Shown: positions 10,754-62,349, counted from the stretch's first letter. The stretch: DNA of 64,000 nt from a virus (IMGVR_UViG_3300028591_000081:1-64000); one strand, 5' to 3'. Notes: a model not told the origin generated them from the sequence alone. Program-made: numbers and translations.

Positions 10754-10795
10754 ATACTAACACAAACCTAACCGAGAGAATTCATTCAGCACCAT
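10754..10795 (-). promoter_or_regulatory. Box promoter (before dnaX)
   Basis: ATGGTGCTGAA-N20-TGTGTTAGTAT. Confidence 0.65.
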
Positions 10796-11566
10796 GGTTT
10801 TGTACATCTCCACCTCAAACACCTTGTCAGGTTCCATTTCAAGCTGTGCCACATCTCCGAAATCCTTTCCATAAGGCGACATCATCATCTGTATGTACAA
10901 TTCAGGGTTACTCTGCGTGAGCTTTCCCTTCAGATTATAAAACCCATTTCTACCTGAGCTGTCATTATCGAATGCCACAAACACCTGCTGGGCAGTGTTC
11001 GACACCAGATCAACACCTTCCCGGTTCAGACCGGACACACCTCCAGTCGCCAGCACATAAGGATACATGGTGGACAGCCAGTCTGAATCAAAAGCACTTT
11101 CAACTACTATCCACGGACATCTGAATGGTTTGTTCTTACGAAGAAATCCATGAGGAATGTGGGGAGTCGGAGTGTAGTACCGAAAGGCTTTGGTAAACAC
11201 GGAACGAAATGTGACCCTGTACACCTTACCTGACGACGTGTAAGACGGAATAACCAAAGCCATGTCTTCATCAGTAAGAAACCTGCGAACGGCTTCTGGA
11301 AGAATCTGGCTTTGGTATGCGGTCTTTCCGTCAATCATCCGATACTGAAAACGGTCAGCATACCACAGATACTTCTGGATGCCGCCACTGTTCAGCATAC
11401 GAAGTCTTCCCTTGAGAAAGCTGTACTGCTCTTTCAAGGTTTCAAGTGGCACTGGAGAAGACAACGTACCGAACCATGTCGTGAGTTGGTCTATTTTATC
11501 TAGGGCTTCGTCCCGGTCATGGGGAAGATACGGATTTGTCGATTCCATCATACGTCCAATTCCCAA
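10757..11566 (-). CDS. DNA primase (TOPRIM domain)
   Basis: IVVESAFD, VFVAFDNDSSG (DxD), GKDFGD. Confidence 0.8.
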   Translation of the reverse strand: MGIGRMMESTNPYLPHDRDEALDKIDQLTTWFGTLSSPVPLETLKEQYSFLKGRLRMLNSGGIQKYLWYADRFQYRMIDGKTAYQSQILPEAVRRFLTDEDMALVIPSYTSSGKVYRVTFRSVFTKAFRYYTPTPHIPHGFLRKNKPFRCPWIVVESAFDSDWLSTMYPYVLATGGVSGLNREGVDLVSNTAQQVFVAFDNDSSGRNGFYNLKGKLTQSNPELYIQMMMSPYGKDFGDVAQLEMEPDKVFEVEMYKTMVLNEFSRLGLC

Positions 11567-12129
11567 CCATCCAGTTTGTCGGCTTTCTCATCATCCGTAA
11601 TAGTCTGATGCAAGTAGAACTGTTCGTGTATGCCGTAATCATAAGCCTCGTTGCGCTTGGCTACTTCTTCAGCATAGGTAACACACGCCTTTTCAAACGC
11701 CTTGAGAACGGCTTGAACAGTTCTGGCACCATAACGTTCGGACATCCATTCCATGGCCTTATCACAAGCATATTTCTTGGCCGAAGGCATGGACATCTTT
11801 TCTCCGGGATTCAGATTGTCGTGATACTCAACATAGAACTCACGACATTTGCAAGCATACTCAATAAGATGTGCAGACTTGTCCGGAGGGAGTCTGTCCA
11901 CGGCGGCCACAATGCGTACCGAGGGCTTGCTCATGGAATACGAAATACCCCCAGAAAACGGACTGTACACAATCTCATAAGGTGTCTCACCAACCATACC
12001 CTCATGCATGACGGCATGATCAGGAGGTGGGGGAAGTAGAGGCTCTTTAACCTCCTTCCTCTTTTCCTTATCCTGTCTTGCTGAGTATTTCTTCGGTTTT
12101 CGCTTCCCATAAGCAAGCATCTTAGCCAT
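11548..12129 (-). CDS. Hypothetical protein
   Basis: 193-aa ORF coupled to neighbours in the replication operon. Confidence 0.6.
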   Translation of the reverse strand: MAKMLAYGKRKPKKYSARQDKEKRKEVKEPLLPPPPDHAVMHEGMVGETPYEIVYSPFSGGISYSMSKPSVRIVAAVDRLPPDKSAHLIEYACKCREFYVEYHDNLNPGEKMSMPSAKKYACDKAMEWMSERYGARTVQAVLKAFEKACVTYAEEVAKRNEAYDYGIHEQFYLHQTITDDEKADKLDGWELDV

Positions 12130-13385
12130 TATCCATTCTCCACGATAGCGTTTATCTCACAAGACCACGATCCGAGGCTGAATCGTACACACTCGTCGCT
12201 GAAAGAAATCTGAACCATACCATCTTCCTTGCACGAGTCCAAGAACTGAAACAAGAGGTTGGATGGAATCTTTACCGACGGATAGTCACGAATTTCGCCG
12301 AACTCTTCATGTGGTGAAATGATGTACCTGTCATCCCCCTTACCGCCCAGCTTGGCACGGAACACATCCGTATCCCCTTCCTTGGTCAAATACAACGTAA
12401 TGCTGTCATCGTAGTAATCGTGGATCTCAGACTTCATCTCCATGGGGATGCGGGCAATGTTTCTCAAAGTACCAATCTGACAAGAGATGCCTGAATCCAT
12501 CAGTGGCGAGGGGCATACGATCATTGGAAGCGTGAATCTGGAGAAGGTAAGGACAAAGTTATCGCCCTCATAGGCCACACACGGGTACGTCGAAACTTTA
12601 TCACGTACAATCCCCACACTGAGACGCTTGGCACTGGTAGATGTGATCAATGTCTGGAGTACATCAGCAGACCACTTCGGAACCCTGTGTTTAAGGAATC
12701 GGCCTGCATATCGGACATGTCCACCAAGGTCTTCCACAATGGCGCAATCTTCAAGAAACTGAATGCTACCCAGCTTATCTTTCGTCTGGGTGGAAGCAAC
12801 CGAAGACAGATACCTCATGGCATTACATGCCTCAGAAGGAACTGTATCCACAAAACCCTCGCTGACGCCGCGTGAAAACATGAACGATTCTGGAGTGAAG
12901 GCCCCTTGTGGCACGGGCAACAAGCCTCCATAAACAAACACTCCGACATCATACACATCCGTACCGTTAGGCGAGGCTTTTTTTGTCACACAGAGAGTGA
13001 AGTTGCTCCCAGAACACAGCTTCTCCGCCCGACTCAAGGTACTTTTCTTCAGAACAAGATGACTCACCATGAAGACGTTTTTAGTGTTCAGCACAGGGAT
13101 GTGCATCTCAAGGGTCGAGATCTGCCCATCATCGGACGCATAGGCATACATCACATACTGGGACTTTCCATCAACCTCACATTGGTCAACTTCAACCAGA
13201 ATAAACGGACAATGATCTTTCGTCTGGTTTGGAAGTTTCGAAGCAAGGCTGAGGAAGTTCTTCAAGTGCTTCCGGCTGATGGTAATATGAGGAACGTCGA
13301 TGGCCTCTTCCTCTTCTGTAAGGACTTCATTGACGAACTCCTCTGTGGTTTTTTCGAACTCTCCTGAGGTGATTTCGTTGCTCAT
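12129..13385 (-). CDS. Probable sliding clamp (Pol III beta-like)
   Basis: Size, N-terminal pattern ITISRKHL..FL...FILVEV...AYASD...LEMHIPV, and position near the clamp loader. Confidence 0.5.
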   Translation of the reverse strand: MSNEITSGEFEKTTEEFVNEVLTEEEEAIDVPHITISRKHLKNFLSLASKLPNQTKDHCPFILVEVDQCEVDGKSQYVMYAYASDDGQISTLEMHIPVLNTKNVFMVSHLVLKKSTLSRAEKLCSGSNFTLCVTKKASPNGTDVYDVGVFVYGGLLPVPQGAFTPESFMFSRGVSEGFVDTVPSEACNAMRYLSSVASTQTKDKLGSIQFLEDCAIVEDLGGHVRYAGRFLKHRVPKWSADVLQTLITSTSAKRLSVGIVRDKVSTYPCVAYEGDNFVLTFSRFTLPMIVCPSPLMDSGISCQIGTLRNIARIPMEMKSEIHDYYDDSITLYLTKEGDTDVFRAKLGGKGDDRYIISPHEEFGEIRDYPSVKIPSNLLFQFLDSCKEDGMVQISFSDECVRFSLGSWSCEINAIVENG

Positions 13386-13387
13386 GC

Positions 13388-61138: not shown

Positions 61139-61225
61139 AACACTCTGGCTTAAAGTGGGAGTTTCACGTATGACGCTAGGACGACTCAAAGTGTGTTCTA
61201 GCCTGTCGTTGGGTCTTCTTGAGAA

Positions 61226-61714
61226 ATGAACACCGTCATCGTTTCCGCCATGTTCTGTTGTGGCAAGACTTATCTGTGTCACAACCAGACAAAGTACTCG
61301 GTGCTTGACTTGGAAGACAGGTTCTTCGGGTCTGGCATGTGTACCCCTGCGCAAAAGGAATGGATCCTTCGGAAGTCGTACTGCCAAAAACTTCGATCCT
61401 GTCTTGGGCAGTACGACTTCATTTTTGTGGCCATGTATCAACCGGTATTGTTCTACCTTGCAAAACATGACATTCCGTATGTTTTGGTTTGCCCAGAGGA
61501 TACAACGGAGTGTTTTGAGGAGTGGGGTAGGAGAAACGTAGCGCGTGGTACAACGGCTCTTTGGGAGAGCTGTCAGGAACGTTGGTCTGAGTCCATAAGA
61601 CTGTCCATGAGTGACCATTATGCAAAGAAGGTCTATCTTTTGAAAAAAGATCAATACCTGTCGGATGTTATCGACCGTATTAGAGAGGAGTGGGGATGTT
61701 TGGTAAATCCGTGA
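61226..61714 (+). CDS. P-loop nucleotide-kinase-like protein
   Basis: IVSAMFCCGKT followed by VLDLE. Confidence 0.6.
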   Translation: MNTVIVSAMFCCGKTYLCHNQTKYSVLDLEDRFFGSGMCTPAQKEWILRKSYCQKLRSCLGQYDFIFVAMYQPVLFYLAKHDIPYVLVCPEDTTECFEEWGRRNVARGTTALWESCQERWSESIRLSMSDHYAKKVYLLKKDQYLSDVIDRIREEWGCLVNP

Positions 61715-62304
61715 TCGCAGGGATGTTTATTTCCCTTGGATGTATGGTCAATTTGAAAGTCGGTGGGTACCTCGGTGCCTTCTTGTTCTCTTTTGGTCTT
61801 TTGTCGGTGGTGTTGTACGCCGTCCCTTTGTACACAGGACGCGCTGGGTTTTGTTCTACTGCGGAAGACCTCAAGCATCTTCCGTTGGTGCTTCTTGGAA
61901 ACGTTGTCGGTACGACGATCTTGGCAGGGTGTGCACATGGATGTTTCCCAGATATGGTGGAGGCGGCCCAGAAGATCATTCAGGCTCGTATGACTTCTCC
62001 CCTTTACGCAGGATTCTTTGCCTCGGTATTGTGCGGTTTCGTAATGACCACCATCGTTCAGTTCGCTCGAAAACAGCCGGAGGGCGGTGAACCCAGAAAC
62101 TTCCTGATCCTGATTCTTGGAATACCTCTGTTCATTCTGTCAGGCTACTGGCACAGCATCGCCGACGCTTTCTATTATGGCGTCGCTGGCCGGTTCGACA
62201 TCTCCATGTTGTGGTTATATCCTATGACCGTTGTGGGCAACTACCTAGGATGCAATGCTTACAATCTGTTGGTGCACCGTTCTGTGTTCTACCACAAGGT
62301 TTAG
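61696..62304 (+). CDS. Formate/nitrite transporter (FNT family channel)
   Basis: AG.FI..G, LFS.GL......LYTG, LLGN.VG, LCG, FILSGYWHSIAD, VGN.LG; about six hydrophobic helices. Confidence 0.85.
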   Translation: MFGKSVIAGMFISLGCMVNLKVGGYLGAFLFSFGLLSVVLYAVPLYTGRAGFCSTAEDLKHLPLVLLGNVVGTTILAGCAHGCFPDMVEAAQKIIQARMTSPLYAGFFASVLCGFVMTTIVQFARKQPEGGEPRNFLILILGIPLFILSGYWHSIADAFYYGVAGRFDISMLWLYPMTVVGNYLGCNAYNLLVHRSVFYHKV

Positions 62305-62307
62305 GAC

Positions 62308-62349
62308 TGTGGTGCTGACGGCGTGACTGGGGTTTTCTCGTGGTATAAG
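62308..62349 (+). promoter_or_regulatory. Box promoter
   Basis: TGTGGTGCTGAC-N19-CGTGGTATAAG. Confidence 0.7.

Follow-up and report, generated by a model that had tools for sequence, protein, structure and literature searches.

A composite box and extended -10 motif marks pre-late promoters across an uncultivated gut jumbo phage

The first 64 kb of a 227,618-bp IMG/VR virus record (47.5% G+C, estimated 96% complete), IMGVR_UViG_3300028591_000081:1-64000, here called the window, comes from a large, uncultivated and apparently lytic gut jumbo phage of ~228 kb. We report that this phage carries a promoter class of its own, in which an almost invariant 8-bp word, TGGTGCTG (the box), stands at a fixed distance upstream of an extended -10 element, and that this class is the general pre-late (non-late) promoter of the phage. 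In the mechanism that we propose, and that we regard as evenly poised between right and wrong, the promoters would be used by the host sigma-70-type RNA polymerase together with a phage factor sitting at -43.5 and contacting polymerase, and this factor would be P0185, a Mor-like protein encoded at window positions 8432-8785 on the minus strand.

The box and its geometry

The exact word TGGTGCTG occurs 13 times in the window, against 1.72 copies expected and a maximum of five in 100 shuffles, with 10 copies on the minus strand (10.7-48.1 kb) and three on the plus strand (53.8-62.3 kb). This search returned the very sites, and the division between strands, that a first-pass annotation of the window had listed by the low end of each promoter, which on the minus strand is the end of the -10 hexamer. 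All 13 copies are followed by TGnTA 23-24 nt downstream, where 0.02 would be expected, and alignment on the box yields the consensus tT(G/A)TGGTGCTGA-N20/21-(T/C)(G/A)TGnTAtaaT. From the last G of TGGTGCTG to the hexamer the distance is 26 nt in 10 sites and 27 nt in three (10787, 48077 and 53811). The same 10-to-3 split had been described as a spacer of 19 or 20 nt, with the box ending 24-25 nt before the -10; the split stands, and the absolute figures vary with where the end of the box is set, being 26-27 nt when counted from the last G.

Extending the motif search to the whole genome and to relatives bore out the class. The complete record holds 37 exact boxes, each with TGnTA 23-24 nt downstream, against eight boxes for the reversed control; 27 sites have the 26-nt spacing and eight that of 27 nt. 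A weight-matrix scan finds 38 sites in the genome and one in the reversed genome; it adds just one convincing degenerate box, TGGTGCTA at 92591, and the 8-mer is thus close to invariant. The box is also the most over-represented 9-mer and 10-mer of the genome.

Numbering the hexamer as -12 to -7, which assumes a start 7 nt after it, puts the 8-mer at -46 to -39. With tTT[G/A] on its upstream side and A plus a weak a on the other, conservation extends over -50 to -37, with its centre at -43.5. The box had been judged too far upstream for a -35 element, and this holds: the alignment of box promoters conserves no base at the -35 position. An extended -10, with TGn directly before TAnnnT and the TG at -15/-14, is present at 13/13 sites in the window and 37/37 in the genome. 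The sequence (T/C)(G/A)TGnTAtaaT is a classical extended -10 and includes the TRTG form common in Gram-positive bacteria; what sets the promoters of this phage apart from ordinary extended -10 promoters is the invariant word at -46 to -39. Outside open reading frames (ORFs), TRTG-type extended -10 motifs are nearly all paired with a box, and the copies that lack one are scattered and lie mostly within ORFs. Canonical TTGACA-N16-18-TATAAT pairs are not enriched genome-wide (15 versus 13 in the reversed control).

Every site in the genome is co-oriented with an ORF, whose Shine-Dalgarno sequence and ATG follow 23-261 nt past the predicted start, typically after ~50 nt; in the window the range is 25-235 nt. 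As had been noticed for the window, the sites point at the downstream gene (13/13) and box orientation flips at the strand switch at 48-49.5 kb. A strong hairpin with a T-run directly precedes 9/37 genome sites, four of them among the 13 in the window (16972, 23014, 35196 and 43886), in agreement with the earlier remark that several promoters follow terminators. Because of this orientation, together with the phasing, position and conservation of the motif, a role other than that of a promoter is very unlikely.

The predicted leaders are more strongly folded than random genomic 46-mers (mean of -10.9 versus -7.2 kcal/mol over the first 46 nt, p = 2e-7), the fold usually being a 5'-terminal stem-loop. 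At four places, window 35130-35160 and genome 86055-86085, 122010-122045 and 183330-183365, a strong hairpin with a T-run lies no more than ~10 nt past the predicted start. Such leader hairpins resemble intrinsic terminators, and could be attenuators or 5' stabilisers.

Other readings of the motif were tried. A sigma-54 reading of the box (GG at -24 and GC at -12; TGGCAC-N5-TTGC) was rejected, the spacing being wrong. Neither GCTCTGTA nor GGATTTGCA was convincing as a second motif, and k-mer counts over the genome gaps that lack boxes gave no motif as strong as the box.

A further possibility is that the extended -10 is self-sufficient and the box an operator, at which a phage repressor would close the pre-late class at late onset. 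Promoters with a TGn extended -10 can indeed work without a -35 or an activator (PMC4390567), and one word shared by all pre-late promoters would permit a coordinated shut-off. Set against this, a site at -46 to -39 is badly placed for blocking, being upstream of the core contacts of polymerase, and the tight 26/27-nt phasing points to a protein that touches polymerase, as activators do. We hold the operator explanation to be highly improbable.

Conservation in relatives and the host question

The lineage is abundant in metagenomes: searches of ENA and Logan assemblies returned 221 matches to its helicase, the best 120 at ~94-95% identity, and an exhaustive search of representatives added relatives whose helicases are 65% and 47% identical. 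Contigs of the relatives with helicase identities of 95%, 65% and 47% carry TGGTGCT(G)-26/27-TGnTA and controls carry none; such sites are also found in a relative with a 79% identical Mor-like protein. In 11 pairs of orthologous promoters the box does not differ at any of 88 positions, as against 55% identity for the spacer and 43% for the upstream flank, and in more distant pairs only the box and TGTGnTA survive. The ninth base is lineage-dependent, being A in this phage and mostly T or G in relatives.

An exact-pattern scan of IMG/VR gave 35 single matches, of which three are true distant relatives; their whole records hold seven, eight and three sites versus none in the control, and with two further IMG/VR relatives the counts are 7, 8, 3, 18 and 3, with 0-1 in controls. 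Together with the motif statistics, this retention in phage relatives upholds the first-pass view of a phage-specific promoter class with an extended -10. No close relative was found by megablast of 12 kb against 50,697 phage records, nor by a helicase-based search for related loci in IMG/VR, a set that may lack near relatives; literature searches for the box word returned only primers and unrelated papers.

The relatives differ in their mobile elements. The helicase (window 33008-35116) has 702 amino acids in this phage and 1054, with a LAGLIDADG intein, in most relatives; in some relatives ligase, RecA and DNA polymerase contain an intein or a homing endonuclease, and TnpB insertion sites differ among close relatives.

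The box might also be read by the host alone, through a host transcription factor or a lineage-specific feature of host polymerase. ArdA and the whole pre-late programme stand behind this class, with no enrichment of host-type -35/-10 pairs, as one would expect if these promoters have to fire at once; moreover, the box is kept across phages with helicases down to 47% identity, as would be expected of the site of a conserved host protein. The genome scans speak for the other side. When the composite pattern was run on one GTDB genome per prokaryote species, the matches listed were singletons scattered over many phyla, and a looser pattern, run on 401 genomes of the class of a Lachnospiraceae metagenome-assembled genome, gave at most two matches in any genome. 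As far as pattern matching can tell, these scans argue against the box being the host's ordinary promoter; to our knowledge, the word also resembles no transcription-factor site, a further count against a host protein as its reader. Recognition by the host alone seems to us distinctly unlikely. As for which host this may be, strong Shine-Dalgarno use and the TAtaaT -10 presumably argue against a member of the Bacteroidota.

Genes behind the boxes

Outside the window, boxes stand before genes for a family-A DNA polymerase with an intein, an HNH endonuclease, a DnaJ-domain protein and the anti-restriction protein ArdA, before a TnpB guide-RNA cassette (128.3 kb) and before numerous small unknown ORFs. 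For ten of the small genes that come first after a box, Pfam gave no match. The first-pass annotation, working from the 13 window sites, had described a replication and nucleotide regulon. This description is too narrow for the 37-38 genome copies: because they also stand before ArdA, the HNH nuclease, DnaJ, the guide-RNA cassette and unknown ORFs, the class is the general pre-late promoter of the phage. By position, nearly all non-structural genes appear to start from a box-type promoter. Boxes are absent from 0-10.7, 140.7-162.7, 163-177, 183.5-198 and 202.6-223 kb, and none stands before lysis or virion genes, including the tail-like genes at window 2-7613; an absence directly before the tail fibre, the 3325/5334 genes and the terminase had been seen earlier.

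Two arrangements among these sites deserve description. At genome 182161-182187, two boxes stand back to back 11 bp apart (TCAGCACCA-N11-TGGTGCTGA), with ArdA leftwards and a 129-amino-acid ORF rightwards. The TnpB guide-RNA/mini-CRISPR (clustered regularly interspaced short palindromic repeats) cassette at genome 128261-128300 begins at a box promoter, and a second cassette (genome 123700-123770) has just a decayed box-like AGGATGATCCTG before a similar TGTGtCATATAG.

In the box-less gaps another word, (c)TATCGAA(a/t), recurs: 14 of its 32 copies are intergenic, intergenic DNA making up ~8% of the genome, and 10 of the intergenic copies are co-oriented and lie 10-98 nt before start codons. 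Genes directly behind it encode an endolysin, a head maturation protease, a baseplate wedge protein and large unknown proteins. Copies are found at genome 68884(+), 83654(-), 112941(-), 135310(-), 149576(-)/149615(+), 170796(-), 188464(-), 205869(-) and 207315(-), all outside the window; the one at 112941(-) lies 32 nt before 110441-112909, the first gene of a block on the minus strand in which a virion structural protein is also encoded. The word is reminiscent of the T4 late TATAAATA, and no upstream element common to the sites was seen. Judged by its placement, TATCGAA is a candidate for a late, -10-only promoter, and a late class separate from the boxes is probable.

Taken together, the two words provide a precise, testable transcription map for an abundant clade of uncultivated gut phages, with ~38 promoter positions, predicted starts, operon boundaries and a separation of pre-late from late genes. 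The composite motif also offers an inexpensive way of recognising this clade's fragments in metagenomes.

Comparison with known activator-dependent promoters

Phage promoters in which an activator site stands in for the -35 are well known. The middle promoters of T4 often have a TGn at their -10, drive replication and nucleotide genes and carry a MotA box whose centre lies near -30, about 12 nt from the -10. They share with the class described here a phage-specific, TGCT-containing upstream word in place of the -35, with the sigma-70 -10 kept (PMC2988021). The box of our phage lies ~13 bp further upstream, and MotA and AsiA (PF09158 and PF09010) gave no match in a six-frame family search, whose sensitivity is limited: it also missed the Mor-like gene that hmmscan finds. 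Of the first-pass analogy to MotA or Mor boxes, then, the architecture of Mor is retained, and MotA, with its box at -30 and no MotA or AsiA match in this genome, fits poorly.

The lambda protein cII binds TTGC-N6-TTGC direct repeats flanking the -35 position. At the cII promoters (PRE, PI and PaQ), too, the site of a phage activator takes over the -35 region of weak promoters; the repeats of cII flank the -35, whereas the 8-mer of our phage lies upstream of it. A contrast between cII and Mor/C has also been drawn in a study of the latter (10.1101/2025.05.02.651988).

The closest resemblance, by analogy of layout, is to Pm and the late promoters of phage Mu, which are activated by Mor and C, respectively. 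Mor binds a 16-bp element centred at -43.5, which contains two 5-bp inverted repeats and replaces the -35 at a -10-only promoter (PMC4390567). In both phages the -10 is present and the -35 absent, and host sigma-70 polymerase, which we infer for our phage, does the transcribing; both have an element centred at -43.5 standing in for the -35 (PMC4390567, PMC2582627), a value that here depends on the assumed start. Both also have a small candidate or known activator with an N-terminal dimerisation region, a strand and a C-terminal helix-turn-helix, although the match to the Mor family is weak in our case. A T-rich tract just upstream of the box occupies the position of the UP subsite of Mu Pm.

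The differences are as marked. Mu sites are inverted repeats of the form 5-N6-5, whereas the site of our phage is an asymmetric, nearly invariant 8-12-mer; our promoters have a strong TRTG extended -10; Mu has one plus four such promoters, and our phage has ~38 that cover its whole pre-late programme. Mu is transposable and temperate, our phage an apparently lytic jumbo phage of ~228 kb, and P0185 has no detectable similarity to Mu Mor or C in direct comparison. The class thus resembles Mor/C promoters in its apparent working, and fails in the dyad feature. The design is already known and its regulatory logic familiar; what is new is the word, and how widely it is used.

A candidate activator and its rivals

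Based on these likenesses, we propose that the box promoters are pre-late (early/middle) promoters transcribed by host sigma-70-type RNA polymerase, whose sigma regions 2 and 3 would read the extended -10, (T/C)(G/A)TGnTAtaaT. The block tT(G/A)TGGTGCTGA(a), at about -50 to -37, would replace the -35 and be bound by a phage activator; a contact between this activator and polymerase is suggested because the 26/27-nt phasing to the -10 is fixed. Transcripts would start a few bases past the hexamer, in most cases fold into a stem-loop at the 5' end, and have their Shine-Dalgarno sequence and ATG ~50 nt from the start. The activator would most likely be the Mor/C-like dimeric helix-turn-helix (HTH) protein of 8432-8785, and the circuit would be self-reinforcing once basal transcription from the extended -10 had set it going, since the P0185 gene ends an operon that begins at a box promoter and has no other evident promoter.

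P0185 (117 amino acids) had been singled out in the first-pass annotation, and it is the only transcription-factor-like protein found in this phage; it comprises an N-terminal dimerisation region, a short strand and a C-terminal HTH, and has no paralogue in the genome. Its Mor-family signal is weak: Pfam Mor (PF08765) matches over profile positions 5-99 of 107 with E 1.6e-3 and 18.9 bits, under the 24.9-bit cut-off. A Pfam Mor match is found in 7/7 P0185 homologues, the best with E 1.4e-5. The AlphaFold model has a mean pLDDT (predicted local distance difference test) of 72, rising to >88 in the C-terminal domain. Foldseek ranks Mu Mor (1rr7) first among its matches, weakly (E 0.37, probability 0.69), and places polymerase complexes of Mu C and Mor at ranks 4-6. 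On VIA re-alignment, C (9l0x_I) gives Z 7.4 with a root-mean-square deviation (rmsd) of 2.5 over 54 aligned residues, and Mor (1rr7) Z 7.2 with an rmsd of 1.6 over 48.

The model of a P0185 homodimer scores 0.70, versus 0.02 for the best control; the runs share at least 95% of their contacts, with a partner pLDDT of 86 or more. The score mark that it passes is reached by 20/30 proteins solved as same-chain pairs and 1/23 solved as single chains. The modelled interface reaches from residue 6 to residue 76, with symmetric contacts along 53-62. Mor and C have a dimerisation domain with antiparallel strands (10.1101/2025.05.02.651988); the 53-62 stretch, as a set of predicted contacts, is compatible with these strands, and the homodimer result may partly reflect likeness to Mor/C.

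Homologues of P0185 keep their position in relatives, coming third after the clamp loader and a gene of 263 amino acids. IMG/VR records with homologues at 54%, 53% and 39% identity have 18, 8 and 3 box promoters, and a homologue is present in every box-bearing relative long enough to test.

Several observations weigh against P0185 as the protein that reads the box. Besides the sub-threshold Pfam assignment, hhalign of the P0185 profile against Mu Mor and Mu C gave no alignment, and a profile search of PDB sequences returned noise only (Src kinases). Other HTH proteins match the C-terminal domain about equally well or better, with Z 9.2 for HetR, 7.9 for DeoR and ~6-6.8 for sigma region 4, and the fold evidence reads as that for an HTH domain, not specifically for Mor. 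Common descent alone could make factor and box occur together. The box lacks dyad symmetry, which in tTTGTGGTGCTGAa is limited to the outer TT/AA positions, whereas the P0185 model is that of a symmetric dimer; an 8-mer without variation is, moreover, unusually strict for an activator site. ArdA, normally immediate-early, stands behind a box, which would fit a class that works without a newly made factor. The P0185 gene itself comes last in the operon that starts at box promoter 10754-10797, with no separate promoter evident, and this place, at the end of a pre-late operon and adjoining the tail genes, is where Mu has C, such that P0185 could instead be a late activator.

In that case the box would be read by another phage protein, either an unrecognised sigma-like or MotA-like protein or a factor delivered with the capsid, and P0185 would act late, like C in Mu. 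The location of the Mor-like gene fits this arrangement, an asymmetric and invariant box is more like the word of a sigma or MotA-type protein than the site of a dimer, and most proteins of the phage lack a family match. On the other hand, the six-frame search gave no match to sigma-70 regions 2, 4 and 4_2 (PF04542, PF04545 and PF08281), polymerase beta (PF00562), MotA or AsiA, negatives that are weak for a search that missed the Mor-like gene, and the TATCGAA candidate late promoters have no common upstream element at which a Mor/C-type protein might act. We consider a different phage reader unlikely.

The activator reading with P0185, which we continue to prefer, names one small protein as the candidate switch. 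If P0185 reads the box, Mor/C-type activation, known from a few promoters in temperate Mu-like phages, would also govern the main programme of a jumbo phage, and act at an asymmetric site. A bolder version would have a widespread clade of gut jumbo phages without host-type promoters run its whole pre-late programme (~38 promoters, including immediate-early ones such as that of ArdA) on a self-starting loop, in which a Mor-derived dimer or a capsid-delivered factor reads an asymmetric and invariant 8-mer at -43.5, unlike the dyads of Mu; so much at once strikes us as doubtful.

Next to the Mor-like gene, and convergent to it, a conserved 280-amino-acid ORF is found at window 7595-8446 (+). Its start overlaps that of the tail-like gene 5436-7613 (-), which leaves no intergenic space for a promoter, and one of the two start calls is probably wrong.

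Promoter sites in the window

The ten minus-strand promoters serve the region up to the strand switch. The first, at 10754-10797, has the 27-nt spacing and precedes the operon of the clamp-loader gene 9658-10722 (called from a Pfam DNA_pol3_delta2 match), 8813-9595 and the Mor-like gene 8432-8785. The promoter at 15265-15307 stands before the small ORF 14942-15217, 14314-15168 and a Metallophos (SbcD/Mre11-like) gene, and that at 16940-16982, directly after a terminator hairpin, before 16612-16896 and an AAA_23 (SbcC-like) gene. Also directly after a terminator, 22982-23024 precedes an NT5C-like gene and a TnpB gene.

The promoter at 32993-33035 lies inside the 3' end of the helicase ORF and before 32168-32932 and a dCMP deaminase gene; the helicase itself, Dda-like and encoded at 33008-35116, has its promoter at 35164-35206, after a terminator. 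Further along, 38513-38555 precedes 38045-38452, a radical-SAM gene and a DNA ligase gene, 40631-40673 precedes 39793-40539, and 43854-43896, after a terminator, precedes the RecA-like gene 42478-43794. The last on this strand, 48044-48087, with 27-nt spacing, stands before 46500-47987, a Bro-N gene and a deoxynucleoside kinase gene.

On the plus strand, the promoter at 53808-53851 (27-nt spacing) is followed by 53913-55340, ThyX, NrdD and NrdG; the one at 60159-60201, whose ninth base is T, by 60274-60555 and later genes including a FocA-like transporter; and the one at 62307-62349 by 62424-62918. The FocA-like formate/nitrite transporter gene (61690-62304) follows NrdD and NrdG (window 56143-62304). 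Because formate is the reductant of class III ribonucleotide reductase, this gene may be an auxiliary one supporting anaerobic synthesis of deoxynucleoside triphosphates.

Other features of the sequence

The strand switch of the window contains a 1.4-kb non-coding stretch (48120-49550) with the repeated words GGAACTCAAGGTTGCATTC, CTAAAGCATCAGGAATTGGC and GGGGTACCCCTAAAATCGCT and an AT-rich palindrome, AGGATGTATATATACATCCT, flanked by inverted TGGCACGGTTCTTGC words. From its repeats, the stretch looks like a replication origin with iterons. The genome has only two copies of the sigma-54-like TGGCACN5TTGC, both in the non-coding region at 49.2-49.35 kb.

Finally, the word acTG(T/A)(G/C)GAAGAC is present in 32 genome copies versus three in the control (for example at window 12729, 43570, 47700 and 57534). 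Its copies lie mostly in frame within genes, where they encode Thr-(Val/Asp/Glu)-Glu-Asp, and the word is therefore read as a recurrent peptide motif and not as a DNA signal.

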